A DNA stretch of 64,000 nucleotides from Gnetum montanum (taxonomy: Eukaryota > Plantae > Gnetophyta): contig MNCI01003108.1 of the NCBI GenBank assembly GCA_015680685.1, positions 238,241 to 302,240 on the forward strand, read 5' to 3'. This document shows positions 781 through 64,000 of the stretch, one piece after another. The notes beneath the pieces were generated by a model, which searched no databases, was not told where the DNA came from, and worked only from the letters and a program-made list of their open reading frames with translations. Every line of letters starts with the position of its first letter. The first letter of the stretch is position 1. A program made the position numbers and the translations under genes.

Positions 781-3510
781 ATGGCCCCGAAACGCTCCTA
801 GCAGAAGAGTCCAACACAAGGTGGAGCAAAAAAACCTAGGAGAGGTCGAAGGCAAGTCCCTGTCGGACAACATAATGAACAGGAGGTGCATTCATTCAGC
901 ATCCATCAAGATGAACCTCCTACTAGACGATTCGGGCAGGCGGAAGGAGGAGCTGCTGCGCCTGAACTGGGACAACAGCTCACGTTGCCCCCGGAATGTG
1001 TTCAGACTATTCACACGGAGTCCACAATCGCTTCAGTGATTGTGGAACTCAACTTCGAATCTTTTGCAGAGTTCGCTCCTGAGGCTGTTAGGGATCACCT
1101 CAAAGGGTCTTCCTTATGGCCCGTCCTCTCTGAACAAGCTGCCTGGTACTTAGGAGAAACGTACCTATTCTGGCACAATAAGGAGTAGGGCACCACGGTA
1201 AACATTGGTGGTGTGACAGTGGATTTTTCTTCACAGGCAATTTTGGAAGTGTTAAACCTTCCGAATTCAGGCCCCTACGTTGCTCAGTTATCCACCCGAT
1301 CAGACCCTGATGTGCGAAAGGATTGGCTAGAAAGGGCTTATGGCAGAGATAAAGCTTTTGGTGAGCTAACCACGGAAGAGAGAGTTTATTTTAAAATCGG
1401 AACCTATCACCTCTTCCCCACGAAAGGTTTAAAAAGAATATCAACGTACGCGACAAGAGGATGTGCAGTGTTGATGGGAAAGGTTAATGCTAACCTTCCT
1501 CATCTATATTTGACGGAGATCCTAAGGCGATTCGAAGAACGGAAGACAGGAAAAATGGCACTCCCTTTTTCCTGTCTTATCAGAAAACTGTGTTGTCAGG
1601 CTGGGATTCGAGGATATACAAATGACGTTTTCCGAAAGGCCCAAAATGCTTCTTACGCTGAATTGTTAAAGGCGCCAGCTCCAAGAAAGAGCACTGGCGA
1701 AGAGTTGGGACCAGATGAAGAAGATGAAGAACAAATGACTGGACCTCCTGCGACTCAACTTGCAGGACCCAGTCAACCTCCAGCCACAGGTCTTAGCCAA
1801 CAACAAGAAGCAGGACCCAGTACAGGCCAGGATCAGCCGCCGCCGCAAGACTATAGACCATCAATGACCCATTTGAGGGCCATTGCTGAGACGGTTAGTT
1901 GGGGAAGTCGTGATGACGCCAATCTCTTCCGTGTCATCGATGATGCCAACCAGCCTANNNNNNNNNNNNNNNNNNNNNNNNNNNNNNNNNNNNNNNNNNN
2001 NNNNNNNNNNNNNNNNNNNNNNNNNNNNNNNNNNNNNNNNNNNNNNNNNNNNNNNNNNNNNNNNNNNNNNNNNNNNNNNNNNNNNNNNNNNNNNNNNNNN
2101 NNNNNNNNNNNNNNNNNNNNNNNNNNNNNNNNNNNNNNNNNNNNNNNNNNNNNNNNNNNNNNCGGAACCTCAATGACTCCTGCTGAACATGAGGATGTAT
2201 TGGACAGACTGCTTCAAATAGGACAAGTTTTAACGTCCCTGTTTGACATCCCCCAGGATGTAACAGCAATTCAGTCAGACCTCATTTTGACAAAGGGGAA
2301 ACTGGTCATATCCGAAGTAAGGGCTAAGGATGCTGAGGCTGAAGTGCAGAAATTACAAGAGCAGCTCATCGCCTTACAAGCAGCACAGCGGGATCCCTTG
2401 TGATTGGTTCCCGCGGACCAGTTAAACAATTTTAAAACCGAGCAACTAACCAAACTAATTGCAGAAAATAAGAAGGTGGCAGAAGAAAAGGAGACGGCCA
2501 CTTGGGATGCCTCCGCAGAAAAGGCGCAAACTCATGCGCATCTTAAGGCACTCAAGACCTTGCAAGAAGAGAATAAGCAGTTGGTTGCAGATAACCTTCG
2601 GTTGACTTCTGTGGAAAAGCAAAAGAATGTTCTCGATGAGCACTTTCATTGGCTGCGAGAACAACTCATCCGAGTCAACCAAGATGTAAGCCGTTTAGCC
2701 AGAGAAAATCGGACCCTCTCAGTGGAGGAGGTACGCGCTATTCGGCAAAAATCAGCCATCGAGATTAGTGTGTGGCAGAATGAGGCTAAACGACATGAGA
2801 AGCTGAAGGAGCACTTCCGTGACCAGGTGGGGATGTATAAACAGATCCTGGAGACAGAGATCCATATGGCCAAAGCTCAAATCAACAACATCAGTGCCTA
2901 GCACACTGATTGGGGGGCCATTGTGGACACTTATGCCTATGCCCACCAGGCGGAAATTAAGAACCAGGACCTGCAGATCCAGGACTTAACTGAATACATG
3001 GAGTTGACAAACCTTCGATGTGCCAACCTGGCCATGTTAACAGCAAGATGCCCGAGGTCAGAGCTCGAGCAGCAGGTAGCTTCCACCCACATCAAATATG
3101 AGGCAGAATTTGCAGAATGAAAGAAGTTGGCTGAAAAACTAGATGTTGCAAATTCTGAACTCGCGGTGGTAAAAGAAAGCTACCAAGGACAGAAAGATAT
3201 GGCAACCGACTTGGCTCGATGGCTAGTAGAACTTCACGAATACAAAGACAGAGCCAGAGCCTACGAAGAGGAACGACGGGTGTTCGCAGCATGGTACGTC
3301 AAAGCTAATCAGATGTTCCCGCAACTACCTTGTCCGTGGGAAGTGCCGACTCCATCAAACATCGGAGCATCAGCATGGACAGCACAAAACCCTCGGACCA
3401 AAGAGGAGAAGCTCCAGGCTATTGTTCAGTGTCATCAACCTTCAAAGCTTGGAGCATGTGACAAGGGGAAAGCACCCATGGAGGAGCCACCGCCACCAGG
3501 AACTACATGA
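781..3510 (+). pseudogene. Retrotransposon 3' accessory (env-like position) ORF, ~909 codons: basic N-terminus, putative plant transposon protein (Transposase_32-like) domain, acidic/P/Q linker, long coiled coil
   Basis: ATG at 781 (MAPKRS); ORF-track pieces 886, 1213, 2404, 2923 and 3127 share one frame, separated only by single TAG/TGA codons (CAG/CGA deamination-type). Motifs 'VNIGGVTVDFSSQAILEVLNLP' and 'LPFSCLIRKLCCQAGI'; ends EEPPPPGTT*. N gap at 1958-2162. Confidence 0.8.
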
Positions 3511-3681
3511 GTTCCACATTTTTGTAGTTGTAGCATTTTTTCTTTGTGTTGTGTCTTCCCACACTGCGGCAATTGTCCATTTCTTTTTCTAGTTAATAAT
3601 CCCATACCTATCCACTGTGTAATCACTGAAGCTTGTTCTCTTTGTAACTCGAGGACGAGTTTTTATTCAGTCATGGGGGTA

Positions 3682-4357
3682 TGATGAGACGCGGTTTGCA
3701 CAAGCCGCGATATTGCGTACGTGATATCGTAGCCGATGAGATATCGCATCCCCCGCGATATCGCGTATGCGATATCGCGTCCTTCCCTACGATATCGTGT
3801 ACGCGATATTGCAGTCCACCACCATGTCTATAAATAAGAGGCGGCTCTCCCTTATTTGGGGATCCCAGTTTTGGTGTAGCGAAGCTCTGGCAGTTTGATC
3901 CCTCTATAGTTAGAATTTTTCCCGTGTCTGCCCGCAGTGTGATGAATGTAATTGTACGGTGTCTTTATTCGAGTGTGCCGTACTTGGACACGCACATGAC
4001 CGGCAATAAAGATCGAGATTACTTCATCATTGCAGCATTCACTTAGTTTATTTANNNNNNNNNNNNNNNNNNNNNNNNNNNNNNNNNNNNNNNNNNNNNN
4101 NNNNNNNNNNNNNNNNNNNNNNNNNNNNNNNNNNNNNNNNNNNNNNNNNNNNNNNNNNNNNNNNNNNNNNNNNNNNNNNNNNNNNNNNNNNNNNNNNNNN
4201 NNNNTTTCTTACCCTTTTCCTCTTAGCTTAGCTTAGTTAGTATTATTTTCCACTGCCTTCAGGAGTAACATAGATTAGAACACATCATACACCTCATCTA
4301 GACTAAACCATACGTGACATATGCAAAACTAGTTTAGATGGGAAGACAGCGAACTAA
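3682..4357 (+). repeat. 3' LTR of element A (family A), 3' end truncated
   Basis: Starts TGATGAG after the PPT; GCGATATCGC repeats, TATAAATA ~3829, AATAAA ~4005; homology to 9669-10490 stops before the CTCATCA terminus. Confidence 0.85.
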
Positions 4358-5478
4358 CGGTTCAAAGTTAGGAGAGTATGCATTGGCCAATGGACTCATA
4401 TGATGAATGGATGGGAATAACTTCTTCAAATCAAGCTTCTTTTCTAAAGGCTCTTTTACATGTCTGTATAAGTACTAAAGCTAAGGCTATGATACCTAAG
4501 TACTAAAGCTTGGGAACTTGAAAGAATTAGGTATCATGTCTTGATGATTACATTTTAAGTACTAAAGCTAAGGCTATGTGGTTTCTTTAGAACCTTGATC
4601 ATTTTTTATCCCATTACTTATAGTTCTAGAATCTTGAATCATGTCTTCAAACCTTTATATCAACCTAAACTTGGTTTTCTTATAGACAATCATGCAGCCA
4701 TCCATGTTGTGGTTTCTACAGTAGGATAGTCTATATGGCACAAAATGAGAATTGTCATGAGAACTATTTTTCTTATATATATCTTCATATTCCAACATTT
4801 TCAAATTGGGTTGGAATTAATATAGAAATGTCCATGGTAGAACTTCTTGTAAGACATAACATCAACATTCAAATCTTATAATTTTGTAAAGATGCATGAG
4901 TATCAGTATTCATGCTAGTACAAGTCACAGGTAGACATAGCAAATGTTGCCTTTCATTAGCTAGGGATCTTATAAGTACATCTTACATTGTGACTTTTAA
5001 ACTTAGATTTTCTCCTGATTCATTCCTTATCACAAGTATCATATACCTTGTCAAGATAAGGTTAGAAAAATTTGGTTGTAACTATATATTAAGGCAAACA
5101 GTCGAAAAAATCATCCAAGCTCTTTGAATTTCACTAATATAAAGAGAAAGTAATTACAGTAGAAGAGGTTGTAGGCTTTGACATAGATGATGGCTATGAC
5201 TTGCTAATATGAACATCTAAAAGGTTGTTTCTGAATCATGTCACATCTTCAAGAGTCTAGAGCATATGCTTTGAATTCTAAGTTCATTAAGAAAAAATAT
5301 CTAGGATGTTGTCTTATCCTTAAGACAACTACAAGTATCTCTACCATCAATAATACTACTAGCCAAGTGGGGATTTACTCAATTGGAAGAATAAAATTAC
5401 CAATAGTGGTAAAACCCATTGCCATGAAGGATGTCAACACCTAGCTAGAAATATCCCTACTAGTAACTAGATCCTTAT

Positions 5479-6271
5479 TGATGAGCCACGATATCGCGTA
5501 CACGATGTCACATTCGGCACGTGATATTGCGTCTTGCCTCATCTTCTATTAATAAGAGGCGGTGCCCTTGGTTCCATATAGTTAGACTTAGAACCTTAGC
5601 CAGATTCTTGTAGTTTTGTTATTCCAGAGTTAGAATTATTTCTGTGTGCCCGCAGTAGGAGTCATAGAGTGAACAAATCTTTATTTGAGCCATTTGTACC
5701 TGAGCACAATGTTGTGTACGGTAATAAAGATGAACTTTATGATAAACCTTGCAGCATACGGATTAAGCTAATTAGTAATTAATTATTTTTTAATTCTTTC
5801 CTAGTTAATTAATATCTCTCTCAACCTTCAACCCCCTTAGTTAAATACACTCAGTACAACCACTTCGAGCATGTGTGTAGCACTTGGTAACCCAGTGACG
5901 ATTAGCGTTTGGTAATCCCAGCAGCGTTGCACTGGTTCAAGATCTGTACAGCAAGTGGGAATGGATACTAGTGTTAGGAACAATTAGAAACTAGTTAATG
6001 AATAGTTAATGTAAGTTAGCCACTTAGTTCTCTCTCCCTCTCATTTATTAGCATAAGACATAAAAAATATAAAAGCTATAAAAATCATGTACCTCAAGCT
6101 TACTTAACCATACAACCGTGACAATACAAGTAAGTTTGGAAAGACAACGATTGATTAACCCTGAGTGTTCCATTAAGGCGCATAAGCACTTAGTCCTTGA
6201 AGTTCAACTGGATCATGCGTGAAATGCTCATATTCATATGGTTGAGTTTAGGGGTACCTCACCACTCATCA
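5479..6271 (+). repeat. Solo LTR, family A, TSD CTTAT
   Basis: TGATGAG...CTCATCA termini; CTTAT at 5474-5478 and 6272-6276. Confidence 0.95.
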
Positions 6272-6949
6272 CTTATGTATACTATGTCTAACAACCCATG
6301 TCTCCTAGTGGTTCTACCACACATACTCTTACTCATTACTATGACCCTTTGGAGTTCGTAAACTAATAACACTATAGATTAAATCACTCTCTTATGTTTT
6401 TCATCCTTATCAATGCTCTCAATAGCATGCTTCAAAACTACTACCACCTATTCCACTACCTATGAAAGGTGACCTAATCCCTATGGATACCATATCCAAC
6501 AACTTGTATCACCTAGTGGCTCTACCATACTTGTCTCTACTCATCATTATTATCCTCCTAAGTAATAGAGACCTACCACTCCACATGCTAAATATCCTTC
6601 TTCTTATGCTTCTCCTCATCACCAATATCCTCAATCTCATGTTTCAAGTTCTTTGTCACTTACTCTAGCAATGCAAGGTGAAATCCCTCCTTAGCCACAA
6701 TTGTGGAACAACAAATGAGCCATGAAAATGACAACTCAAGTCATTCCAAGTGTAAGTCTTGAAAATGTTGCTTATTTAGTTTGGCTAATCCACCTAAACC
6801 TTCATAAGCATCCATGGTTATGGACCCCATACTAACAACCTTCTAGATGTCATTTGAGCCTTTAAGCCAAAGTTCCTCAAATGTGCAAATTATCATGTTA
6901 ACCCATGAAGTTATTAATTAGATAAAAGAAAAAAACCTTTCCAAAAAAA

Positions 6950-9668: not shown

Positions 9669-10490
9669 TGATGGGATGTGATATCACATGGGTCGCGATA
9701 TCGCGTCTTCCCCTGCGATATTGCGTACACGATATCACAGTCCGCTACAATGTCTATAAATAAGAAGCGGCTCTCCCTTGTTTAGGTATCTAGTTTTAGT
9801 TCCTTAGTGAAACTCTAGTAGTTTGATCCCTCCAGAGATAGAATTATTTTCCAGTGTTTGCCCACAGTGTGGTGAATGTAATTGTACGGCATCCTTTATT
9901 CGAGTGTGACGTACTTGGACACGCACATGACCGGCAATAAAGATTGATATTACTTCATCATTACAGCATTTACTTTGTTATTTATTTATTTATTTAATTA
10001 TTATTTACTGCTTTCTTAATTAGTCTCTCACCCTTATCTCCTAGTAATGTGGAATGAGTACGACTTGATTATGCGCATTTAAGTGTGACTACTTGGTAAC
10101 CTAGTGGCGTACCTAGGATCTGCGCTTGGTAATCCCAGTGGTAATCATGCATGAAGTCCAGGATGTGTATGAATGATCAAGGAATGGATGCTCATCGCAC
10201 TTAGGCTAGATTAGATTTTCTTACCCTTTCCCTCCTATCTTAGCTTAGTTAATATTACTTCCTATTGCCTTCAGGAGTAGCGGTTAGATTAGGAACACAT
10301 CATACACCTCACTCTAGACTAAACCATATGTGACAAATATAATACTAGTCCAGGTGGGAAGAAAATGAACTGTGACCTAAGGATAACTGTCTAGGTGCCA
10401 CAACTAGTCTGTTTGCGGAGTTCGATCGGATCGCGTGTGAGAACGCTCGTATTCGTATGGTTGAGTGTAGGGGTATCTCGCCACTCATCA
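9669..10490 (+). repeat. Solo LTR, family A, TSD ATCAT
   Basis: TGATGGG...CTCATCA; ATCAT at 9664-9668 and 10491-10495; closest to the element A LTR. Confidence 0.95.
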
Positions 10491-14149: not shown

Positions 14150-14932
14150 TGATGAGTGGCGAGGTACCCCTGCACTCAACCATACGAATACAAGCGTAAC
14201 ACGCATGATTCGGTCGAACTCTGCAGACTAAGTGCCTACACGCCTCATGGAACACTTAAGGTTAATTATTCATTGTCTTCCCAGACTTACTTGTATTTGT
14301 TACGGTGTATGGTTAAGTAAGTCTGAGGTATATGATTTTTATATCTTTTTATGTTTTTGTCTCCTATGCTAACAGGGTGAAGGGTAGAGAAACTAATTAC
14401 TAACTCTAACTAACGAACTAAGTCTAATTTAACCTAGCATCAACATCCATTCCCACTTACCATTCACACCATGAACCAATGCAATCGTGGTTACCAAACG
14501 CTAATCATTGCTGGGATCGCCACATGTAACGCACGTGCTCGAAGCAGTCGTACTGAGGCACTTAACTGGGAGAGAAGGGTTGAGAAAGAATTAATAACTA
14601 ATAAAGCATGTAAAAAATGAATAATAAATAACAGTAAATAAAAGTCCTAATTAGCCTATTTCATGCACTGCAAGGTTTATCCAAGAAGCTCGTCTTTATT
14701 GCCGTACACAAACTTGTGTTCAGGTACAATGTTTGCTTGAATAAAGATTCGTTCACTTTAGGACTCCTACTACGAGCACATGGAAATTAATCTATCTCTG
14801 GAGTGGAAAAACTTCCAGAGTTTTGCTACGGTCTAGGCCTAGATTAGGAAACAAGGGAGAGTCGCCTATTATTTATAGATATGACAGCGCACCGCAATAT
14901 CGCGGGGAAAGATGCGATATCATGTCCAATCA
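14150..14932 (-). repeat. Solo LTR, family A, TSD ATAGG
   Basis: Reverse complement of the family A LTR; ATAGG at 14145-14149 and 14933-14937. Confidence 0.95.
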
Positions 14933-25210: not shown

Positions 25211-25330
25211 TAGCCATGCACTCAACTAATATCTCCACTAACGCTCAAGCCAATTTCATCTTTCATAATTTCACCTTTCAACATAGTTGTCGGAGAGATA
25301 CCCATATGGTTTAATACCTTATGATAACTT

Positions 25331-26221
25331 TGATAAATCCAATTTTCTTTTGCAAGAATGATATCCTAGATATGATATTGCATCTACAATATCCTAGCCA
25401 TCCTACATCATTGTTGATATGATGTCTCGGGAATTGTGTGACCCTATAAATACTCACACTTGGTCATACTAGCAACAACAATTTCATTCCACCCTTAGCT
25501 AGACTCTTGTAGTTTGTTTTTGTAGTTAGCAATAGTGTGAATGCCTGCAGTGTGGTGTTAAGTAGTTATATGGCATCTTTATTCTAGTAGATTATACTTC
25601 GGCATGGTTCATAAGTGGAAATAAATATCAAGATTTTTTTCCACCATTGTAGCATCCACATAGTTCTTTTATTGCACTTAGCTAATTTCTTACTTAGTTT
25701 AATTTCCATGTTCACTTTAGCTTAGTTCTTTACATTTCCAAAGCACTTTACATGTTCATTAGTAAGGCAGAATGAGTACAACTGGTTTTGAGCATTAAAT
25801 GTAATCATTTGGTAACCCAATAGTGGTTTCACTTAAGTCACTCAGTACTGAACTCATTTGGTAATTCCAATAATGGTTACATAAGCCTAAGATGTGACTG
25901 ACAAGCTAGGATTTGATGCTCATCAGCATAGGCTAGAGTAGATTTACATTCGTGTCATTACTTAGAATTAGATTTTAATCTCACTTTCACTATATTTACA
26001 ACTAGGAGTAAATTAATTGAAACAACATCAACATATCATATGCCTCACTAAGAGTTAACCATACACTTGAACTTCACTAACTCAAAGTAGGAAGACAATG
26101 ATCATGAGCCTACTATCAACTCTTAGCATACTTACATTATCAATTCACAGATTATGATCTAGTTGTGTGTTTGCACTCATGACTTGTATTGTGGAGTGTT
26201 GGGATACTCTACTACTCATCA
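25331..26221 (+). repeat. 5' LTR of element C
   Basis: TGATAAA...CTCATCA; colinear with 45973-46871. Confidence 0.9.
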
Positions 26222-26241
26222 TTAGCACCATTGTTGAGGAT
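26222..26241 (+). other. Decayed tRNA-Asp-type PBS
   Basis: TTAGCACCATTGTTGAGGAT equals TTGGCGCCGTTGCCGGGGAT with only G>A and C>T changes. Confidence 0.8.
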
Positions 26242-26749: not shown

Positions 26750-26897
26750 GATGAGATGACAAAGAAAGCATTAGTGTAATTAGAAAGAGAAGGTGATGAG
26801 ATGACAAAGAAAGCATTAGTGTAATTAGAAAGAGAAGGTGATGAGATGACAAAGAAAGCATTAGTGTAATTAGAAAGAGAAGGTGATGAGATGACAA
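26750..26897 (+). repeat. 45-bp tandem repeat, 3 perfect copies plus a partial one, in the Copia 5' LTR
   Basis: GATGAGATGACAAAGAAAGCATTAGTGTAATTAGAAAGAGAAGGT at 26750, 26795 and 26840. Confidence 0.95.
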
Positions 26898-28084
26898 GGA
26901 ATGTACTACAAAAGGAGAAATTCATCCACATGGTCTCAATGGTTCATCCACCAAAGGCAAGCTTAAAGGAAAAGAATTCAAAGAAAGTGGACAAGTAGTG
27001 TTGTCATCATTGAAGCATGCAAAAGATTAATGTTGTAGACGAGGAACGATGAATTCATCATGCAAAGAAAGGTTGAAGAAAGACATCTCTAAGAAATAGT
27101 AGACGTCTTGGCATAATTGGAGGATGCATAGGTAAAGATGTCTTCAGGAAATAGTAGACGTCCTTCCTTAGGCAAAGACATATTCCATCAAGTAGAGACA
27201 TATTCACAAAATGCAAGCCAGTTTCAAAAAGATGTCTTCCATTAGATAAAGACGTCTTCCGAGAATAGAGATTTGAAAAAGACATCTTTCCCAAACAAGA
27301 ACGTCTTCCTAGAATAGAAGGAAAATATAGAAAGATGTCTCAAGCACCAAGAAGATGTCTTCCATGATCAGTAGTGACTATTCGCTTACTGTTACATAGG
27401 TTTCAAGATGGATTTGAAAACATGATAACTATGAGAAGACACCATATGCATTGAAAAGTGTGCATGCTTATGTGTAATCATTCTATAATCATTTTGTCAA
27501 TCATTGTGATATGTGTTGCTCTTCATTATATCATCATTTGTACACTATAAAGTGTGCTATACCTCAAAGTGTAAGGATTAGCAAACTAAGTTGCATTTAT
27601 CCCTTGTAATTATTCTCCTTTGTTGCCTTGTGGGGTTGATGTGCTTCTTGCAGGAAGGCATCTTGCTTGAGCTTGTTAGGACTCTACAAGACTGAGTGAT
27701 TAGTGTTGCAGCACAACACTTCAGAGTAGAGCTCAATATTGTAAAGATTATGGAAGCCTAGAAACCACATTTCAAGCTTGATGAAACCTTACAAGGTTGA
27801 GTGGTTGATGTTGCATCATAACACTCCAAAGTAGGGCTTGAAGATTATATAGGTTGTGGATCCTTCAAACCACATTTGAAAGCAACAAAGTTTGAAGGTT
27901 TGCTTGCAATCTACCCTTTGAGTGTTGACTACCCAAGTTGGGAAACCACACTAATTTTGTATGTGTGCTTTAATTCATAAAGTTTTAATTTGCAAAACTT
28001 ATTCATCCCTCCCTTCTAAGTTCAACAATCCACAAGTGGTATCAGAGCTTGGTACTCTTCTTTGTCATCATCAACTTCAAGAGT

Positions 28085-29150: not shown

Positions 29151-32100
29151 GTTCTTGACATATAACTAAATAAGATGGTAAGTGTGACAAGAGGTATAGT
29201 GAATTTAAAGAAGAAATTTTTCTTTTACATCATTTGATTATGAACGCTAAGAAACTAGTACTTTCTAAGCTAGATGCTATTCATGCTAAAATGATAGAAG
29301 GGATCTTAGACATAAAAGTTGAGACTCACCAATTAACCTCTTTTAATAAGGATTGCGGTAAAGTTCAAGAAGAGGAGACTCTTGAAAAATAGCCAAGGAA
29401 TTTAGAGGAAGTAACACACAAAAATTCAAGCTCAAGCTCAAGCATAATAAGGTTTGATAATTTTGATCATCAAGATAATACCTTGTTTGTTTGTAAAAAT
29501 TGTGGATGTAAGTAGACTCTTAACTATACTCATGATGATCAAAACAAGTTTAACGCTTGGTCTTGTCAAAAAGGCTTTGGTAAGGAAATTGTTCAAGTAC
29601 CAATTAGTGAGAATGAAGAGAAGTGATGAATTGAAGATGATGCAATAAGTGATCAAAGGTTCTATCGTAAAAAGCATGAACAAATAGAGACATTACACAT
29701 ATAATCTAATGAGAGAGAACCAAAGGATGAGGTGGTACTTCATGATAGGGGACCTCATCTCAAACTTCATTAATCTTCTCTTCTCCTCTACAAGCAACGT
29801 AAGTCAAGGTAAGCTTCCATCTCTTTGCTTACTAGTTAATACGGTATTTGAAGTCCAAAATTATTTTTCTTGAAAAATGGTGGAATAATTATTTAGAGCA
29901 TCCCTTACATTCAATTTTGAGCTTGACATAATTGGTTCTATGAACATATGTGTGTAGCTCTTATTTTGATTTCCTTTGGATCATTATCTTATTTTTTTTG
30001 TCATGTTTAATCTAAACTTATTGTGACGATCTACTTCTAAGCTCATGCCCTTTGGGATATTTTTTCTATTTATGAAATAAAACACATTTGTGAAAAATCC
30101 TATCAATATTACTAATTGGAGATCTTAGTCTCCACATTTGAGCTTAATGTTGACCTACAGTTGTAGTGTGTTTGTGATTTATAACAATTGTACATTAATA
30201 GCCCAAGATAAGTAGCACATGTGTCGGGGGAGCCTATTCCTCATTATCCATCACCATGTTAGAGATCACCAATGTAGGAGTAATCTTTGGAGACTTCAAC
30301 CAAGAGACATTGAAATAACAAAATATTCCAAAATGAGCAAGATAAGGACACCAAGAGGTATTTTTTCTTTTAAGAGGATGGCTAAGTCTTAAATTTGTGA
30401 TCTCCTTTGGCATGATTATCATTTCATTTTTGAAAATTAATTTTATTTGTGGCATTGTCTTATACAAAAAGAAAAATATGCATGTTTCTTTCATGACTTC
30501 CATATCCTTTGTGTTGATGTATTCCACATTTCTTGTTGAATATAAATATACAAGTTCTAATGATATATTTATTTCAATTAAATAGGTTGCTTGATATACA
30601 CTTAGTTTTTAACATCAAATTATGTGTTGTTGGTTTTTTTTTATTAGTTGTAGATCCTTATTTTGAACTGATAAGAGTAAGTCTTAATGTATCATCAGCC
30701 CACATATTTGATATTCAAGCATAAGTTGAAGTAAGAAGTAAATATATCTTTATGAAAGAATGCAAATAGTGATATTATTCCTTACAACAATATGAGCAAG
30801 CACATGATGATTTTAATTATGGGAAAGTATCCACAATTTGATTAAAACATCTTTTGAATAGTTTGCCTTGAGATGTACTTCCTAGCTCAAGAATTTAAAA
30901 TATGGCATGTTTGATCTCACATTGTAAAGATGTATTTCCCTTATCATATAAGATATGCCCTAATCTTTTGCTGATGTTTTTAAAAGGACAAAGAATATTT
31001 TAGCATTAAAAACACTATGCACTATAAACTACTAATGATTTATTTGAGACAAGTTACTTGATCTTCAAGACTTATAGTTCACTTCAAGCTTTAAGTTTGA
31101 GTATCAGTTGGAAAGGCTTGGATTAGTTCTTGATAAATTCAGGATAACTCCTCATGGAACTTCGTGCTAAAAAATGTATGCTCTTTAATTAATATTGTTG
31201 CCTTCTAAATGCTTTTTTTTTTGGATTCTAACATGATTGTTGATTATGCTTATTTTATACTATGCATTTATGATGACTCTTTTTCCACTTTATGTGCCTT
31301 ATCCTTTGTTTCTATTCAAATAGGGGGAGAGTAGTGTGGTTATATTTGTATGATTACTAACCTATTTTCTTAAGTTTTGAACATCATCAAAAAGGGGGAG
31401 ATTGTGGACCTTTTAGTGTGTCAAAATGTTAAGTAAAATGAAGACAATAGATGTATGTGTGGTTGTTGTGGTTGTAGGACCCAAATGAGATGACAAGGAA
31501 TGCATTGGTGTAATCAAAAAGGGAAAGTGATGAGATGAAAAGGAACACACTAGTGTAATCAAAAGGAGAAAGTAATCCACATGGTCTCAAGGGTTCATCC
31601 ACAAAAGGCAAGCTTAAAGGCAAAGAATTCAAAGAATGTGGATAAGTAGAGTTGTCATTATTGAAGCATGTGAAAGATCAAGGTTGTGGACAAGGAACGA
31701 TGAATTCATCATGTAAAGAAAGGTTGAAGAAAGACATCTCTGAGAAATAGTAGACGTCTTGGTAAGATTGGTAGATGTACAGGCAAAGACATCTTCAAGA
31801 AATAGTAGACATCTTTCCTCAGGCAAAGATGTCTTCCATCAAGTAAAGACATCTTCACAGAATGCAAGCCAGTTTCAGAAAGATGTCTTCCATTAGACAA
31901 AGATGTCTTTCAAGAATAGAGATTTCAGAAAGATGTCTTTCCCAAACAAAGGTGTCTTTCCAAAATAGAAGGCAAATATAGAAAGACAACTCAGGCATGA
32001 AGAAGACATTTTCCATGACCATTAGTGATCGTTCACTAGCCATTACATGAATTTCAAGATGGTTTTGGAAACATGATAGCTATAAGAAGACATCATATGC

Positions 32101-32689
32101 ATTGGAAACTCTACAAGCTTATGTGTAGTCATTGTACAATCATTTTGTTAATCATTGTGATCTTTGTTGCTCTTCATTGTATCTTCATTTGTACACTATA
32201 AAGTGTGTTGTACCTCAAAGTGTAAGGATCAGCAAACTAAGTTTCATTTATCCTTTGTAATTGTTCTCCTTTATTTTCCTACGGGGTTGATGTGCTTCTT
32301 GTAGGAAGGCATCTTGCTTGAGCTTGTCGAGATCCTACAAGATTAAGTAATTAGTGTTGTAGCACAACATTCTGAAGTGGAGCTCAAAATTATAAAGATT
32401 GTGGAAGCCTAGAAACCACATTCCAAGCCTAATGAAACCTTGTGGGGTTGAGTGGTTGGTGTTGCAACACAACACTCTGTATTAGGGCTTGAAGATTGTA
32501 TAGGGTGGGGATCCTTCAAATAATATTTAAGAGCAACAAAGTCTAAAGGTGTGCTTGCTATCTACCATCCAAGTGTGGACTACCCAAGTTGGGGAGCCAC
32601 ATTAATTTTATGTGTGTAATTTAATTCATAAAGTTTAAATTTTGGGAACTTATTCATCCACCCCCCTTCTAAGTTCAAAGATCCACACT

Positions 32690-45972: not shown

Positions 45973-46871
45973 TGATAAATTCAATTTTTTTGCAAGCACA
46001 ATATTGTAGATCTGATATTGCATCTATGATAACGTAGCTACGATATCATAGATCATCCTATTTCATTGTTGGTGCAATGTCTTAGAAGCTATGAAGCCTT
46101 ATAAATACTAGCACATGGTTGTACCAGTAACAACAATTTCATTCCACCCCTCGCTAGACTCTTACAATTTGTTTTTGTAGTTAGTGATAGAGTGAATTCC
46201 CGCATTGTGGTATTAAGCAATTGTACGGTATCTTTATTCGTGTGGATTGTACTTGGACATAATTCATGAGCGGAAATAAAGATTGAGATTATTTTCCACC
46301 ATTACAGCATCCACTTAGTTCTTTTATTACACTTAGCTAATTTCTTACTTAGTTTAATTTCCATATTTACTTTAGCTTAATTCTTTACATTTTCAAAGCA
46401 CTTTACTTTACATGTTCATTAGTAAGGCAAAATGTGTATGACTAATTTCGAGCATTAAGTGTAAATGTTTAGTAACCTAGTAGTGGCTTCACTTGATTTA
46501 CTTGGTAGTGAACTCACTTGGTAATCCCAATAATAGTTACATGAGCCCAAGATGTGATTGGCAAGCTAGGACTAGATGCTCATTGCCATAGGCTAGAGTA
46601 GATTTACATTCCTGTCATTACTTAAACTTAAATTTTAATTTCACTTTCATTATGTTTACATATTGAACCTAACAACATTAACATATCATATGTCTTACTA
46701 AGAGTTAACCATACACTTGAACTTCACTATCTCAAATTGGGAAGATAAAAATCATGAACCTACCATCAACTCTTAGCATACTTACATTATCCATCGACGA
46801 ATTACAATCTGGTCATGCACATGCACTCGTGACTTGTATGGTGGAGTGTTTGGATACCCTACCACTCATTA
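45973..46871 (+). repeat. 3' LTR of element C
   Basis: PPT AATCATGAGGGTA then TGATAAA; ends CTCATTA followed by the TSD. Confidence 0.9.
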
Positions 46872-51828: not shown

Positions 51829-52666
51829 TGATAAATGTCAATTTTTGTAAGTCAAGTCAATACAACAACATCAACATATGCATTATTTTATTAACACATC
51901 AACATTAATACAAGTTTAATAAATGCCTATATAAATGCACACATCCATCACATTTATGGTACCATTCGATTAGTAATATAGTAAAAAATTTTCAATTTCT
52001 TTTCATGAAAGTTTGTATTAGTCACTGATTACCTACAACATGAATCAAGTAGATTATACAAAATTTTATTTGAGTGATCATATACCTAAACACATTTTCA
52101 TGGTGACGATCAAACTAAGATTCATTTTCTTCATTATAGCACTTGGCTTATTTTTATAATTTCTTGAATTACAATTTATTGTAATTAATTCTCTAAGTTC
52201 AACACTTCATTAATTATTTTACTTTCATTACACTTAATCAAAATCACATAAGTATATTAACTTCAAGCATAAAAACATTAATGTTAGGTAATCTCAGCAG
52301 TATACCACTTGGTACACCTAGTAGTAGACACTTGGTAACCTAGCAACATTGATCTATGTTTAGGATGTGTACAACTAGTTGGGAACAAATGCTTCATGTT
52401 TAGGCTAGATCAAATTTATTTTGTACAGTTATGTTAATTAGTTAATAATTTTAGTATTTTAAGAATAATACTTTGATCATATGTCTCAATCATACTTAAC
52501 CATATAAATTAAGTGCAGACAAGTGTTATTGAATATAGCAACCAAAAATCTAATGCTTAGCTATCTAGACATGTATACTAGTCTCACTTCATAAAATTCA
52601 ACTAGATTATGCATGGATACCTGTAACTTGTTTGGTTGGATGTAGAGTCTACTTTATTGCTCAATA
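51829..52666 (+). repeat. 3' LTR of element D (family A-related, decayed)
   Basis: Follows GGATGAGTTTT...TGGAAGTA; TATAAAT ~51929; CTTGGTAACC repeats; 3' end approximate. Confidence 0.75.
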
Positions 52667-54722
52667 ATTTTTAACATTCTACAAGGTGCAAGCATCATGG
52701 AAGGCTTGCAAATGATGTCATGGATGTGTGATAGTCTCTTTTGAATTTAAGGATATTATTCATATCTAGTCTCTTAATGTGACTATCCTTTTGATGCCTA
52801 GTTGGAATGTGAAAAGCCTTTCTAATGTTGATTGTACTTTACATAGCCATCAAAGATTTTTCATAGTCATTCGATTTATCATAATCTTTGTCATCACCAT
52901 GATCCCTTCTATGCTCTCTACAATGCCTTCTATCATGTCTATGATCATGATCACTATCTCTATCTTTGTCTTGATCTTCATATTTATCTCAATTTTTGTT
53001 TTTTCCAAGTTGTTTATCATGGTTTCCTTCTCCATCTCTACTAAGTTGCCTATCTTGACCCTTATGTATGGTTCCTATTCCTTGTCTATGTTCATCTTTG
53101 TTAGAGCTTAAGGATGAGGATGATGAAGAGGATGGAGAACAAGGAAATCCATGCAAACTTGATCTTCTTTCTTGATCCTTCTGATTGTCTCTTCTTTGCC
53201 TACTAGAGGTCATCCTTATGTTAACTCTTGTTCTTCCTCTTCTTTGGTTACTTGTCAAGGTAGAGCATAGCCATGGATTGCTTGTTTCTTCAATGTTGAA
53301 TATAGAAGAATTTTGGTGATTGAACCTTCTTGATTGATAATCAATGTCCTCCTTCTTTGATTCAGACATTAATGGAAGGGTAGTGTGCTTACCCTTAGCA
53401 ATTTCATGATAAGCTTCCATCAAATAATCTTATCTAGCTTAGGCTTCTATGGGCTTGTATGATCTAGACATTTCATTAAGCACTTTGTATTCATCTACAA
53501 TAACTTCTAGTCTAATCTTCATTAATGTAGTGATGAGCATTGATGGAGCTACCCTATCAAGTAGCAACATAATGTTACCTTGTAGGTCTTTCCATTGTAG
53601 TTGTTCATCTTACTAGGAAAAAAAGTTAAATTATAAACAATATGAATCCAGATGATGGTAAATAACCTTCACTTAGTAGGGCACATCATTATCATCATTT
53701 CTATGATCCTATCATTACCCCTTGTAATGTTATTAGTGTGTAGAAAATTAAACCTATGAGAAGAAGATATATTAAATTAATGTGTTTGTAACTTATTAAT
53801 ATATGAATATATTCAAAAGATAAATCATTAAGCTTTTAACATCAATAATGTATGATATCAACTAATCTAGAACACTAGCACCCTCCTTAGCAATGACACC
53901 AATGACAAGTAGCTCAATAGATCCTATGCCTAATCATACAATGCATAAGAGCTACAAATCTACAAACAAAGCTATATTGGTGTCTAGATAGTTAATAATT
54001 GATCATGGGTCATTGTTTTTCCACTTGGACTAGTTGTGATTCTAAGCATATGGTTTAGTTGAAGGTGATGCATATGATCATGATATTTTTCAATATATTT
54101 AACTAACAATAGTAAAATAATGAAGTAATTAATCTAACAAGCCATAAAGTACATGTTAATTTAGCCTAAAAACAATGAGCATTCATTATTGATTTGTTGT
54201 ACATATCCTAAACTCACATGATTGCTACTAGGTAATCAAATGTTCACTACTAAGCATACCAAGTGATAACACTACTAGGATTACCAAATGATAACATGTT
54301 TATGCTTGAAATTAGGCGTACTCATCCTCCATATTACTAATACACATAGGAATATAAAGTATTATGTTAAGTACATGGAAAAGTAAAGTACAATGAAAGT
54401 AAATTATAAGAAAGGAAATATTATGCTAGGTTAGAATGATGTAATGAAGGGAATTAATCTTAACATTATTTCCATCATGAATTGTGTTCATATACAGGCT
54501 ACTAATAAGACTTCAAATAATTAACTTATTTCTTGTTAAAGGAACTTATTAACTGCTACTTAAATTCATGAAAATAAACTAATAAAGTCTCTCTATCTAC
54601 TACATTAATGATGCATTGAATGTAGTAGATGATTGTATTTATAAGCATTAATTGTAACTACAACTTTGCATTTGAGATGTCACATCTATGATGTTGCAAC
54701 GCACCAAAAAAACTATTCATCA
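52667..54722 (-). mobile_element. Element E: 5' LTR (53903-54722), PBS (53883-53902) and gag start of another Athila-like element
   Basis: Minus strand LTR TGATGAA...GTCA, then TTGGTGTCATTGCTAAGGAG (decayed Asp PBS); gag with D/R/H-rich repeats and 'HHLQAFHDAC' at ~52700. Confidence 0.8.
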
Positions 54723-55169: not shown

Positions 55170-58100
55170 AAAATATAAAACAAAAAAGAAAAATATTTAG
55201 AAGTTTAGCTAAAGCATCAACTATTGAATAATGTCACCTTGAACTAATAATGGGATAAAATTAGCTAGAGAATCTCTGTGAAAAACCACATTACATTGAG
55301 ACTTCTAGATGACATAAGAATAAGAGGACTAAAGCAACACCAACAATAAGGTAGAAATTCTTGAAGTTGAGCAACGCCACCAAATAAAACTTCATCCAAT
55401 CCTAGTTGAAAACCATATAAATACTTGCTACACCAAGTCCAAGATTATGAGCATGGGGATAAGGAAAAAAATAATAGGTGAACGTATCTTCCATGTTGTA
55501 GATAGAAGATCCAAGGTCATGAACACTCAAATAAGAGTATCAAATACCCATAGGAAAATAGTGAAGAATCAAATACCATAGAAAATGTCTAATTTTTGAA
55601 GAACTAGGGGAATTCCATATCTTCTAAATTGATTACTTCCATACCTAAACATTATGATTAACCTTCCAAAGATAATTGAATCTTGGTCAAATATTAGTAT
55701 TAGAACTAATAAGAATATACATAATCTTAGACTAATATGAAAAGATATGATGGTCATTAATCTAAGAAAAATCAAGCAAACCATTATGAGAATCTTGAAT
55801 AGCTACACTTTTGTTCAAACTAACCAAAGGATAAAAAAAAGTAGACTTTTTAGAAATATTAATACCATAAATACTTTGACACTCATATTAAATAATCCAG
55901 TGATTATTTATGTGAATAGATGAAAAAGGAGGACATGCCAAGCTTATACCATGTGCTACAAAGATGTGGACACTTAATAGCCTATGGTTCATTGTTAATG
56001 GGAAGCCACCAAGAAGAAATCTTATTAAACATAGAGGTAGAAATAGTATTATTGAAGTTCTAAAACTGACTCATAAAACTACAAATATTCCAAATATGCT
56101 TAATGAAAATGGAACCTAAAATAGTAATACCTTTTGGAAAAAGGATCTAATTCAACAAATGAATATCTTTCCAATAATCACTACCTTCAGGTTTACCTAT
56201 ATGAATGCACTTACGAAAAAGAAACTTCCAAGGATCTCTATCAGATAAGCATTTAACCACCCACTTGACACATAAAACAATACCCGACTTATAACAATTT
56301 AGCAATCTTAATCCTTCATCCTCTTTGTGACAAGTACAAATGTTCTAGGCAGCACAACAAAATCTTTTTTTAAAATGGCTACTACTCCAAAGAAAATTTC
56401 TTATAAGCTAATCAATGTGACGATAAGTAAAAAAATTTGGAGCCCAACAAGAAGAATAATACACATGAATATCTTGGATGATATGCTTATAAACAATAAA
56501 TTTACCATCCATTGAAAGCTTCTTCTCCTTCCACTTGATAAGTCTTTTTTCAATTTTCTTCACTATAACATCCCATAAAGTTTTTGAATATTCAACAAAG
56601 AAAAAATGAATGCCTAACAATTTGAAAACATTAGGCTTTTCTTAAAAATGTCAAGATATAGACAAAGCCCATTCTTAAACCTCCTTATTGCAATAGATAA
56701 AAGATTTGAACTAATTAATATGAGAGCCTGAGAGCCTACAATATTGATAAACACGATAAAAAAGATGACCTACAATAGCTTTGTTATTTTTTATCATAAA
56801 AAAAATTCATTTGCCAAATGCATATTCAATAAAGTAGGAACATTATTATGAATGAAGATGCCTTATAGAAAATTCTATTCATGGTCCTTTTGAATAACAC
56901 AATATGAAAAATATACAATAATGATGAAGAGATAAGGAGCAAGAGGGCAACCTTGCCTAACTGAACACTCAAGCTTAAAACTATTAGTAATGCCAACATT
57001 AGTAGTCACAAGTGCATTAGCATTTGCAAAGAGAATTTTCCTCACCCTAATAATATTTTCATTCAAACCATATTTGTGATGATAGATAATAAAAGACTAC
57101 CATTCAATTCTATCATATGATTTAGCATCATCAAGCTTTAGAAAAGTAATCTCTTGATCGAAATCCTCAACCCAATGCATATTGTCTCAAGCCACAATAA
57201 TATTGTCTAGAATATATCTACCTTTGACAAAGCCAATTTGCATTGGGGTAATTAATTCAGGAATAATTGATTTTAATCTTTTAGCAAGATATTTAGTCAA
57301 AATTTTATAAATAGAATTTAGAAGAGTAATAGAATGTCAATTACCAATGTGAGAACTATTATTGATGAGTCCCGAAATCGAACCCTCAATATCGAATCCT
57401 CGATATCGGATACGCGATATCAGAGATGCCGAAGTGATATCGAACATGCAATGTCAAAACCTATCTCATTGCCTATAAATAAGAGACAAGGGCACTTGGT
57501 TTGGCATTAGTTTTTTAGTCCCTTAGTCGAATTCTTACAGTTTTTCTATTCCAGAGTTAGAATTATTTCTGAGTGCCTGCAGTCAGAGTCATAGAGTGAA
57601 TGGATCTTTATTCGAGCATTATGTACCTGAGCATACCTTGTGTCTAGAAATAAAGATGAACTTTTTGATAAACCATGCAACATTCAGAATAGCTTAATTA
57701 TTGCATTTCATTTTATTTGATGCTTTCAATAGTTACTTAATGCTATTTCATAGAATTATTAATTGTCAATTACCAATGAATTAGCACACTCAGCATGACC
57801 ACTTCAAGCATACGTGGAACACTTGGTAACCCAGTAACGACTAGCATTTGGTAATCCCAATAGTGTTACACTAGTTTAGGATGTGTCCAAAAAGTGGGAA
57901 CGGATGCTGGTGTTAGGACTAGTTAGAAGATAGTTAATTAATTAAATCAAATTAGCTATTAAATTACCTCATTTCTCTCTTTTGAGCATCAAGAACATAA
58001 ACATAAAATAATAAGAATCACATACCTCAAGTTTACTTAACCATACAATTATGCCTTACAAGTAAGCTTGGGAAGACAACCATTGCATAACTCATCCTTG

Positions 58101-61006: not shown

Positions 61007-61650
61007 TGATGAATCATGGTTTGTCAAGTGCTGATATCAGATCCTTATTAACTAGGTGCTAATATCAGACCCCTATTTTTAGACCCCTGATGTCTGATGA
61101 GTCCTGATATCAGACCCCCGATATCACACCTGCAATACTGTGTATGCGATATCGCGGCCTAGCAATGTGAGCCTATAAATACACAATGGGGCGCATGAGA
61201 AAGAAGCAGTTTTCAATAGTCAGTTTAGTGTTAGAGTAGCATACCTAGGATCTACGCTTGGCAATCCTAGTAGCATACCTAGGATCTACGCTTGGCAATC
61301 CTAGTAGTAGTCATGCATGAGGTCCAAGATGTGTATGGATGATTAAGGAATGGATGCTCATTACACTTAGGCTAGCTTAGATTCTCTCTCCCTTTTCCTC
61401 CTAGCTTAATTAAAGTTATTTTCCATTGCCTCCAAGAGTAGCACTAGGTTAGAAACCACATCATACACCTCACTCTGGACTAAACCATACGTGACAAAGA
61501 AAATACTAGTCGAGGTGGGAAGACAAAAAACTATGATCAACAAGTAACTATCTAGATATCACAACTAGTCCATCTATGGAGTTTGACTGAATTGTGCGTG
61601 AAACACTCATATTCGTATGGTTGAGTGTAGGGGTACCTCGTCACTCATCA
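61007..61650 (+). repeat. Solo LTR, family A, TSD AGCTA, with internal deletion and a 34-bp tandem duplication (61235-61302)
   Basis: TGATGAA...CTCATCA; AGCTA on both sides; R-region hairpin missing. Confidence 0.93.
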
Positions 61651-61804
61651 AGCTACAACCAAAATGGTTGTAGAAACCACTTAGAACTACCTCAGTCAAT
61701 TTTGAGGTAAATCCCTCAAGGCATAGCACAATGACATCAAGTAAAGAAGAAGAAGTAATCAAATGTAACTGCAAACACAACCACAGCTTGAAACCCTAGC
61801 TATG

Positions 61805-64000
61805 AGATGAGCACCAAGGTACCCCTACACTCAACCATACGAATACGAACGTTTTACGCACAATCCAGTCGAATTCCAAGGACTAAGTGCTTATGCACCC
61901 TTGTGGAACAAGGACACATTGGTTGATCATTGTCTTCCCAAGCTTACCTGTATGTCACAATTGTATGGTTAAGTAAGCTTGAGGCATATGACTTTTATAG
62001 CTTTTATATTTTTATGTCTTGCACTAGTAGGGAAGGAGAGAGGTAACTAAGTGACTAATTTAACTTAACTACTCATTAACTAAGTTCTAACTAATCCTAA
62101 CACCAGCATCCATTCCCACTTGCTGTACACATCCTGAACCAATGCAACACTGCTAGGATTACCAAACGCTAATCGTACTGGGTTACTAAGCGTTACACGC
62201 ATGCTCGAAGTGGTCGTGCTTGTGTAATTTAACGATTTGCTTAATTGATCAACATGAATTGCTGTGCTAATAACAGAAACGTAAAGTGCATAAAATAAAA
62301 TAAAATAAAATAAATGCATAAGAAAATAAAATAAAAGAAATGTGTAAGAAAAAAAATCTCAAGTCCTGCAAGGATGAATCAAAGAGCTCATCTTTATTGC
62401 CATACACAAAGTGTGCTTAGGTACACAATGCTCAAATAAAGATCCATCCACACTTAGACCTCTTACTGGATGCACTTGGAAAATACTCTAACTTTCAAAC
62501 AGACTATAAGAGTTTCGCTACTTGACTGCTAAAAGACTTCTTTTCAATTGTGTACCTGGGCACTGTATTTATAGGCTTAGGAGCAGCTACTCTAATAATT
62601 AGAGTAACCGCTCTAATAATTAGAATAACTACTAAAGTAACCACTAGAGTAACCACTCTAATAATTAAAGTAACTACTAGAGTAACTGCTCTCATCATAC
62701 CCCCACGACTGAATAAAAATGTGTCCTTGAGTTCCTTACAAAATATTGGGAAGGTATGGGATTATTGACTAATTGACAACTGACAGTGGAATGGGATGAT
62801 GGACTCAACATGCCCAGTGAATGAATCAATAAGCATATTACAACATTAGTGTTCATGACCACTGTGGTGAACACTCATACATAAATGACATCTAAGCCTT
62901 TATTTAGCAGCTTGAAGAGAAAAAGAGAGAGAGAGAGAAGATGGAGCGTGTTGCCACCAATGCTGAGATTGCACCTTCCATTGTTTATCCATAGCCATGC
63001 CACCAAACTTGCTCCTTTCGTAAATGCTCTAGTTTTGGTCCATCATAAGTGCTTCTTCCAAGCCTAGTCCATTATTTGTATGATCGCCATATGCACAGAC
63101 AACATAGTCACAAATGAGCAAGGATAGATAATCAACAATGTAGTTGATACCTTGCGCTGATATGAAGTGCATTGGCTGAGTTATGGTTATGGAAGAGACT
63201 AGTTCGAAGATTTATCACTGGCAACTACCCAAGGTGTAGGGGTTAGGCAATTAGTAAAATGGAAAAAATTGAAAAACTTGTGTATTTCATGGTTAAGATA
63301 ACTTAGAAGAATTCATCCCAAATCCAAACTCAAACCAACCACATTCAGTGACCTCACATCAATACACTTGGCCAATCCATCCTCTTGAGGCAACAAGAAT
63401 GCTTCCACAAAGAGTGACCACCATCCCAAGGAGAGTGAGATGGAGAAGTAGGAAGTGACAAAGGGCCTTAATTAGAGAGAACCTTCAGGCATGCGTAACA
63501 TGTCTTTCCAGTGCCATAACTAGCACTTGTAGCCCATATTACTTTATTATGTCTAAGGGGTGTGCTTTGAATTCTCACCTTTTTCTCTCTCTTTTTTATG
63601 TTTATGCATGAGAACCACACCATGCAAATACTTATTTTTATTCACTCAGCTTCCTAATATTTGAACAATGTCAAAATGGCAGAAAACCCAAGAAAAAGCA
63701 TCCAAACGCCCAAGAGAATGGCCAGCACCAATGCATTGAATCCCCTTAAAGTCACACCCTTTTCATCCTTTGAGTCTTTCCTTGGTTTGAAAAATACCCA
63801 GCCACCAATTCATTAACAAGTTTACTTAGAAAAAGGGGACTGTACAGTTCCAAGCCAAAGGAGACCATAGGGTTGTATGGATAAGTGGACGATGTGGACT
63901 CATTGCCTGTTTTACCAAAAAAACCATACCTTAATATTAGCATCATAATTCAAAGGTAAAAACCAAACATTAGCAATCAATATGATTCAATCCACTATCA
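61805..64000 (-). mobile_element. Element F: 3' LTR (61805-62697), PPT (62698-62712) and 3' internal region of a family A element
   Basis: Minus strand reads TTTTATTCAGTCGTGGGGGTA-TGATGAG, matching element A's PPT/LTR junction; R/U5 homologous to 5479-6271. Confidence 0.85.

Follow-up and report, generated by a model that had tools for sequence, protein, structure and literature searches.

A poly(A)-signal hairpin in the LTRs of an Athila-like family of Gnetum montanum and a candidate U5 partner for its loop

Any long terminal repeat (LTR) element whose poly(A) signal lies in the repeat region (R) must ignore the 5' copy of that signal, and a solution to this problem is known for human immunodeficiency virus 1 (HIV-1). 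There a hairpin masks the AAUAAA and represses 5' polyadenylation, its stability being balanced for use of the 3' copy, and the choice between the two ends is aided by an enhancer in the unique 3' region (U3), by promoter proximity and by U1 (PMC2645353). The hairpin of HIV-1 and of simian immunodeficiency virus (SIV) lies in the repeated region, takes in the AAUAAA and is present at both RNA ends, where the 3' copy is truncated by polyadenylation (PMC2645353). For plant Gypsy elements no such solution was found in the open-access literature. Here we describe a ~110-nt hairpin that pairs the poly(A) signal in the LTRs of an Athila-like retrotransposon family of Gnetum montanum. The window analysed is a 64,000-nt stretch of contig MNCI01003108.1 (assembly GCA_015680685.1, positions 238,241 to 302,240 of the forward strand), and coordinates are counted from its first nucleotide.

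Several other described elements bear on this locus. The 5' terminal RNA of Ty1 contains two complementary 7-nt motifs (SL1a-SL3a), separated by ~270 nt, one of which is at the apex of a hairpin near the 5' end; a paired change of the motifs partly restores transposition and they are proposed to start dimerisation (PMC5454406). The tobacco Copia element Tto1 was predicted to carry a single-stranded loop on an R-region hairpin, and the available part of that paper gives a fold prediction for one element, made for cDNA-RNA kissing, and reports neither covariation nor a masked AAUAAA (PMC3061985). A survey of LTRs linked conservation in long R regions to stem-loops, and plant Gypsy LTRs could not be modelled in it (PMC3601003). 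The Athila clade of OTA Ty3/gypsy elements is characterised by a 5-bp target-site duplication (TSD), an extra open reading frame (ORF) before the 3' LTR and large non-coding regions (PMC6317226). In Evade, an element for nuclear expression (ENE) with a U-rich internal loop lies upstream of its LTR (PMC12501189). Only ~10% of Arabidopsis genes have AAUAAA, and the nuclear RNA of this species tends to be single-stranded at poly(A) signals and at cleavage sites (PMC7784297). A hairpin over the poly(A) signal of Athila or another plant LTR, or an Athila kissing loop, was not found described in the open-access literature, which agrees with the initial annotation, where no description was known for this family.

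The copy set was drawn from the window and consists of eight good hairpin copies and two heavily decayed ones. The initial annotation had placed a hairpin at 3929-4037 and named seven copies; its arms are where they were quoted and all seven copies exist, while an eighth was found at ~25542 and the decayed ones at ~52018 and ~54431. The copies fall into three subfamilies, A1 (3929, 9859), A2 (25542, 46197) and B (5647, 57574 and, on the reverse strand, 14778 and 62473). Identity between subfamilies is 50-59% from the TATA box onward in the seven complete LTRs, and the distance from the TATA box to AATAAA is 175-181 nt in 8/8 copies. The hairpin copies and the parts of copy 1 are located as follows.

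3929..4037, plus strand: R/U5 hairpin (U5, unique 5' region), copy 1, subfamily A1, within a 3' LTR (sequence, fold).
3962..3969, plus strand: U-rich arm TCTTTATT, partner of the poly(A) signal (helix 3, the AATAAA helix, 97.5% of alignment cells paired).
3982..3989, plus strand: 8-nt apical loop of copy 1 (consensus fold); its own U5 site is inaccessible owing to the N gap 4055-4204.
4005..4010, plus strand: AATAAA poly(A) signal of copy 1 (sequence).
4026..4029, plus strand: inferred poly(A) site of copy 1 (position relative to AATAAA).
5647..5757, plus strand: subfamily B copy in the solo LTR 5479-6271, TSD CTTAT (alignment, fold).
9859..9967, plus strand: subfamily A1 copy in the solo LTR 9669-10490, TSD ATCAT (alignment, fold).
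14666..14779, minus strand: subfamily B copy in the solo LTR 14150-14932, TSD CCTAT (alignment, fold).
25542..25653, plus strand: subfamily A2 copy in the 5' LTR 25322-26221, which is followed by a decayed stretch resembling a primer-binding site (PBS).
46197..46308, plus strand: subfamily A2 copy in the 3' LTR 45973-46871, which is preceded by a polypurine tract (PPT).
57574..57682, plus strand: subfamily B copy in the solo LTR 57363-58203.
62364..62474, minus strand: subfamily B copy in the 3' LTR 61805-62697, preceded by a PPT.
52027..52146 (within ~52018-52150), plus strand: decayed extra copy, hairpin fold lost.
54431..54550 (also placed at ~54435-54503), minus strand: decayed extra copy, hairpin fold lost.

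The lower stem of copy 3929 is formed by TGATGAA (3940-3946) and GTAAT (3948-3952), which pair with ATTAC (4018-4022) and TTCATCA (4023-4029), and in the AATAAA helix TCTTTATT (3962-3969) pairs with AATAAAGA (4005-4012). The RNAalifold consensus of the eight copies has an energy of -13.94 kcal/mol and contains 37 pairs in four helices arranged around the 8-nt loop. The longest unbroken helix is ~10 bp and large internal loops occur at fixed places. Two-sided change was observed in 14 of the 37 consensus pairs. As claimed initially, the arms differ between subfamilies and stay complementary: ten two-sided pairs are well supported, as against 1.04 in column-shuffled alignments (as many in 0/200), and the shuffled alignments fold at -0.71±1.04 kcal/mol, none of the 200 being as low as the observed consensus. 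These shuffles preserve the gap pattern and the conservation class and are not a tree-based null. Pairing holds in 88.1% of 294 cells; with the 3' partner displaced by 1-3 columns the share drops to 33-49%. The other half of that claim, a covarying hairpin that pairs the AATAAA, stands in part. Covariation sits in the apical and lower stems, whereas the AATAAA helix is conserved and not covarying. In the apical stem, 6 of the 9 pairs show two-sided change, and one lower-stem pair is A-U in copy 3929, G-U in 9859 and G-C in 25542 and 46197. A G-U pair at alignment columns 69/97 is kept in 8/8 copies.

The fold also strongly prefers the sense strand, since the antisense consensus reaches -4.04 kcal/mol with two well-supported two-sided pairs (31/200 shuffles); when one copy per subfamily was taken, the antisense fold passed the shuffle test as well. 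Subfamily A alone shows seven two-sided pairs where 2.6 are expected (1/200 shuffles) and subfamily B alone six where 2.2 are expected (4/200), with a consensus register that is partly different. Across seven whole LTRs, 5 of 25 windows of 120 columns beat all 100 shuffles, three of them on the hairpin and two on a second U5 hairpin. Single copies fold unevenly, with z-scores of -1.89 for copy 3929 and of -0.06, -0.90, -0.13, -2.86, -0.80, -0.33 and +0.19 for the others. The shared fold is not the minimum free energy (MFE) structure of copies 25542 and 62473, and copy 46197 forms only its upper part. Such unevenness is expected because the insertions have decayed since landing. The Rfam comparison that had been proposed gave no match on the hairpin: the whole 64 kb had no match at gathering score, and four weak matches over 3684-6300 all lay outside the hairpin copies. 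Pattern scans for further copies returned two matches in metagenomes, both in bacterial coding DNA, none in viral contigs and one in prokaryote genomes, in a Bacteroidales metagenome-assembled genome and without real likeness to the window. The shuffle tests and the sense preference support the earlier proposal of a selected RNA structure that pairs the AATAAA, and we consider it very probable that the hairpin is such a sense-strand structure.

Transcription was followed in four raw RNA runs and one DNA run with the same species label, among 24 listed runs. Reads on 3300-4054 were taken at 82% likeness and are mostly less than 95% alike, so that they stem from many family members and not from this locus. 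Runs X21 and X22 show a strong strand bias over the hairpin (403 vs 3.4 at 4002-4027 in X22), and these sense reads bear out the earlier assumption that the segment is transcribed. Depth in X22 drops from 403 to 47 between the bins 4002-4027 and 4028-4053, a drop that divergence could explain too. Reads also span the PPT-LTR junction of the LTR starting at 3682, so part of the RNA runs into this LTR from internal sequence.

The poly(A) site was mapped on the subfamily B copy 14778.

14676..14679, minus strand: mapped poly(A) site in the 3' arm of the hairpin 14779-14666 (poly(T) read ends).

Within 14570-14830, poly(T) loose ends before 14676 were observed in 232/870 reads of X22 and 295/974 reads of X23, and they indicate polyadenylation on the LTR sense strand; further poly(T) ends lie before 14686 (39 in X22, 46 in X23). 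Depth across the site falls from 341 to 22 in X22 and from 399 to 10 in X23, and the strand bias at the AATAAA of this copy is ~461:25 and ~554:14, respectively. The genomic sequence has three A's only at this place, and in the DNA run no T run occurred among the six loose-end groups listed, which are followed by 272 further ones. From their mates, runs of the X22/X23 type appear to be 3'-tag libraries. The site is 16-19 nt past the AATAAA (14700-14695) and inside the 3' arm. The hairpin therefore straddles the R/U5 border: most of it lies in R, as had been claimed, and its last 10-13 nt are U5. Family members thus transcribe the segment in the LTR sense and make use of the paired AATAAA as a poly(A) signal. 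Among the 40 of 90 variants listed, 17 fall in 14660-14782, where nine are on unpaired bases, seven preserve a pair and a single one disrupts pairing. Copy 3929 has one listed variant that leaves its pair intact and another that disrupts a pair of this copy's MFE structure, at a position where copy 9859 has a bulge.

We noticed that positions 2-8 of the apical loop are complementary to a 7-mer of U5, which lies 236-293 nt downstream in the seven complete copies.

10156..10162, plus strand: U5 7-mer pairing 7/7 with the loop of copy 9859.
5935-5941, 25885-25891, 46545-46551 and 57874-57880, plus strand, and 14470-14476 and 62133-62139, minus strand: U5 7-mers of the other copies.

In the alignment of seven LTRs this helix has 44 of 49 cells paired and three two-sided pairs; it ranks first of 831 windows, the next having 39/49, and it is also first in an all-against-all scan. 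Its pairs switch among subfamilies between C-G, U-A and U-G, between G-C and A-U, and between A-U, G-C and G-U. With the loop held fixed, an equal partner was found in 0/500 shuffles. The two decayed copies were found after the helix and have 13 of 14 cells paired: in the one at ~52018 the loop (52084-52091) pairs 7/7 with U5 52358-52364 on the plus strand, and in the one at ~54431 the loop (54493-54486) pairs 6/7 with U5 54213-54207 on the minus strand. Only 2/519 and 7/526 downstream 7-mers, respectively, match as well, and deamination could account for some of the A-U pairs in these copies. The loop-U5 helix is probably real, and a long-range U5 partner explains the conserved loop better than protein binding alone. 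On the predicted fold the contact might be either a kissing loop or a pseudoknot. A further long-range U5 helix was observed between columns 394-399 and 546-551 (~5855 and ~5965 in copy 5647), with 43 of 49 cells paired over seven columns and three two-sided pairs; it would close a U5 domain that contains the loop partner and repeated TTGGTAA motifs.

The initial annotation had compared the hairpin with the HIV-1 polyA hairpin, and in geometry the analogy holds, with the AAUAAA in the stem and the cleavage site in the 3' arm. As in HIV-1 and SIV, a used AAUAAA lies in a stem-loop that contains the cleavage site, and compensatory change is found among the eight copies. Sequence homology and an Rfam match are both lacking, which makes the hairpin an analogue and not a member of that group. 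Here ~110 nt form three stacked helices, with the AAUAAA fully in the stem and a separate 8-nt loop, whereas in HIV-1 the AAUAAA lies partly in the hairpin loop. In comparison with Ty1, a yeast element of the Copia type, the family belongs to another superfamily, its first loop tops a poly(A)-signal hairpin and the partner lies in U5; support for the stem around this partner is weak, and the evidence is natural covariation instead of mutagenesis. Repression of the 5' site is demonstrated for HIV-1 but is a prediction by analogy for the Athila-like hairpin.

The predicted cost of opening the AATAAA is 1.6-5.1 kcal/mol in the eight copies; for 138 further AATAAA of the window the median is 0.48 and the 90th percentile 2.54. 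If the cleavage factors of plants work best on a signal and a cleavage site that are unpaired, a stem with an opening cost of ~2-5 kcal/mol would weaken a poly(A) site. In the promoter-proximal 5' copy this weakening could suffice for the polymerase to read through; in the 3' copy the balance would be shifted toward use by U3 or internal sequence lying upstream, as in HIV-1. Cleavage would strip off the stem base together with the whole of U5. Removal of the basal helix costs 0.9-8.8 kcal/mol, and the truncated folds left after cleavage have -17.5 to -24.6 kcal/mol. Because cleavage removes these parts, the basal helix and a loop-U5 contact within the same molecule would be confined to RNA that escapes cleavage, meaning the 5' leader of the genomic RNA, where the contact would help to fold the leader for dimerisation or packaging. 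By analogy with HIV-1, the chances are about even that damping of 5'-LTR polyadenylation is part of the hairpin's job. For the whole reading, in which the R/U5 hairpin damps 5' polyadenylation and its loop pairs with U5 for leader folding, dimerisation or packaging, we give a probability of roughly 0.5.

Several observations weigh against this reading. In the AATAAA helix, 7 of 10 pairs are invariant and none shows two-sided change, and the AATAAA is used in vivo although it is paired. The predicted opening cost at 37 C is equal within 0.2 kcal/mol between the 5' and 3' contexts in 7/8 copies; as folding does not separate these contexts, a 5'/3' switch must come from a factor outside the model. 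The region of the cleavage site is mostly unpaired in 3 of the 4 subfamily B copies (predicted probability of being unpaired 0.6-0.8). Arm duplexes formed across subfamilies are only modestly weaker than cognate ones (in unconstrained register, -22.0 vs -25.1 for the whole, -10.4 vs -13.5 for the lower and -6.2 vs -7.0 for the apical stem), and eight copies in three subfamilies represent few independent events. In the bulk oligo-dT, unstranded run X24, depth does not fall across the site (241, 235, 164) and tracks the DNA profile; this is ambiguous, as it fits read-through and equally intronic, antisense or DNA background. The loop-U5 complementarity was first seen by eye and scanned afterwards, and an unguided search over 356,590 helices found an equal helix in 84/500 shuffles, so this result depends on treating the loop as special from the outset. 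Each of the three compensations in the helix is a double transition, a type of change that deamination promotes. The U5 partner has a probability of being unpaired of at least 0.7 in 4/7 single folds, and the consensus of the small U5 stem around it is not significant (215/500 shuffles).

Among the alternatives, the one that we take most seriously holds that the hairpin is mainly a scaffold for packaging, dimerisation or priming that presents its 8-nt loop to U5 or Gag; the AATAAA would be paired merely because it is sited in R, and promoter proximity or splicing factors would block 5' polyadenylation. The strongest covariation is indeed in the apical stem, where two thirds of the pairs change on both sides, and in the loop-U5 helix, and U5 contains more conserved helices. 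In HIV-1 the polyA hairpin also serves as a packaging signal (PMC3203606), and the Ty1 loop motifs function in dimerisation and packaging (PMC5454406). A scaffold does not by itself explain the near-invariant U-rich arm opposite the AATAAA in eight copies or the extension of the stem across the cleavage site, and as the hairpin's main role we find it unlikely. It is compatible with damping of the 5' site, and both roles may hold. A service in minus-strand transfer, in which the 3'-R loop pairs with cDNA or with the 5' U5 and joins the RNA ends, has been proposed for Tto1 as a loop-kissing model that is itself a prediction (PMC3061985). The loop studied here lies in R and survives cleavage, so that a 3'-R loop could pair with a 5' U5. 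Kissing between cDNA and RNA requires no conserved loop sequence, however, the basal helix needs U5 bases that the 3' end of the RNA lacks, and the fold of the antisense strand is far poorer, which makes this role improbable.

A neutral origin would make the hairpin an inverted repeat of single ancestry whose complementarity was kept by template switching or by DNA repair of the hairpin, with ancestry and deamination producing the appearance of compensation. The lineages are few, z-scores are near zero in 5 of 8 copies, the compensations are mostly transitions and the two most decayed copies have lost the fold. Such an origin is nonetheless quite improbable in view of the strong sense preference (-13.9 vs -4.0 kcal/mol), the G-U pair retained in 8/8 copies, the internal loops at fixed places, the fixed spacing from TATA box to signal and the poly(A) site inside the stem; local palindrome repair also cannot explain a partner 240-290 nt away. 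The stem might also be a small-RNA precursor, as had been suggested, or an ENE-like element that protects the poly(A) tail, since it is a long fold-back adjoining that tail and ENE motifs are known in plant LTR elements (PMC12501189). This is very improbable. MicroRNA precursors form long, nearly perfect duplexes that give a discrete pair of small RNAs. The hairpin has no Rfam match, its helices are short and interrupted by large internal loops, and the suggestion of a precursor found no support. Identity with an ENE was considered and rejected, as internal loops that are U-rich on both strands are absent from the alignment and the structure.

A bolder form of the preferred reading, in which the hairpin damps 5' polyadenylation and its loop pairs with U5, would have a plant Gypsy lineage independently join a polyA-hairpin switch of the HIV-1 type with a kissing loop of the Ty1 type in one element. 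The U5 partner would lock the hairpin in the uncleaved 5' leader and so couple read-through, dimerisation and packaging, and the subfamily-specific letters of loop and partner would be a code that separates subfamily RNAs. We regard this as a doubtful extension. The novelty lies in a hairpin of this sort in an Athila-like LTR and in a U5 partner for its loop; the polyA hairpin and the kissing loop are already known as kinds. Support is good for the structure and the poly(A) site, and the regulatory role and the kissing contact are predictions modelled on 8-10 copies. Since the family provides a mapped poly(A) site and a long-range helix of 7 bp together with a defined element of ~110 nt, the question of the 5' signal can be tested with short reporter fragments. 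It is also very abundant, as 66,566 contigs of one DNA run match 755 bases. Its LTRs serve as RNA ends, and the hairpin would therefore bear on insertions that truncate host transcripts.

The window is dense in retroelement remains and has ~33% GC outside its first 4 kb. The LTR with copy 3929 starts with TGATGAG at 3682 and runs into the N gap from 4055; complete related LTRs are 780-900 bp long with the termini TGAT...ATCA. The 5-bp TSD is exact in three solo LTRs (listed above) and has one mismatch in a fourth. Other features of these elements are the following.

3669..3681, plus strand: polypurine tract preceding the LTR start (sequence).
3829..3836, plus strand: TATA box in U3 of the LTR (sequence).
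1189..1956, plus strand: extra ORF ahead of the PPT and 3' LTR (PF20167 Transposase_32, E 1.9e-10, 41.3 bits, below the curated cut-off of 45).
26222..26239, plus strand: decayed PBS-like stretch behind the 5' LTR, putatively of the tRNA-Asp type.
6095..6138, plus strand: second covarying U5 hairpin, position in copy 5647 (present in all seven complete copies).

The 5-bp TSD, the extra ORF before the 3' LTR and a weak gag remnant downstream of the 5' LTR 25322-26221 (E 1.8e-4) fit an Athila-like Ty3/gypsy family by sequence features. Athila elements are further marked by a primer tRNA other than Met, of the Asp type, and by the lack of the extra RNase H. The extra ORF matches PF20167, a domain of plant transposons, and not the Athila ORF-1 family named in PMC6317226, and a homologue search with it gave 0/724 candidates at E<=0.001. 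Reverse transcriptase, RNase H and integrase (RT-RH-INT) matches between the 25542 and 46197 LTRs lie on the opposite strand only and are not tied to these LTRs. The family is called only Athila-like because no RT could be linked to its LTRs, and clade membership is accordingly unproven.

The 25542 and 46197 LTRs are 84% identical and their flanking 5-mers differ; they are probably the two ends of one element split by nested insertions. Within 25322-46871 these insertions include a Copia element (LTRs 26841-28034 and 31485-32687) and the opposite-strand Gypsy RT-RH-INT remnant. The hairpin segment is entirely absent from an A-type LTR copy at ~61105-61651 on the plus strand, which has kept the U5 partner site (~61322-61328) and is arranged tail to tail with copy 62473. 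In the second U5 hairpin the arms differ among subfamilies and still pair, with four two-sided pairs where 0.03-0.11 are expected (0/100 shuffles in two windows), and a conserved purine-rich motif follows it. In the internal region before the extra ORF, 191-320 on the plus strand contains GATATCGCG-type repeats, as in U3, followed by a TATA box; this may be an internal promoter that was copied from the LTR or is common to both. A cyclophilin fragment at ~40800-41030 on the minus strand (PF00160, E 1.2e-11), among retroelement remnants beside an N gap, is possibly a captured or processed gene piece.
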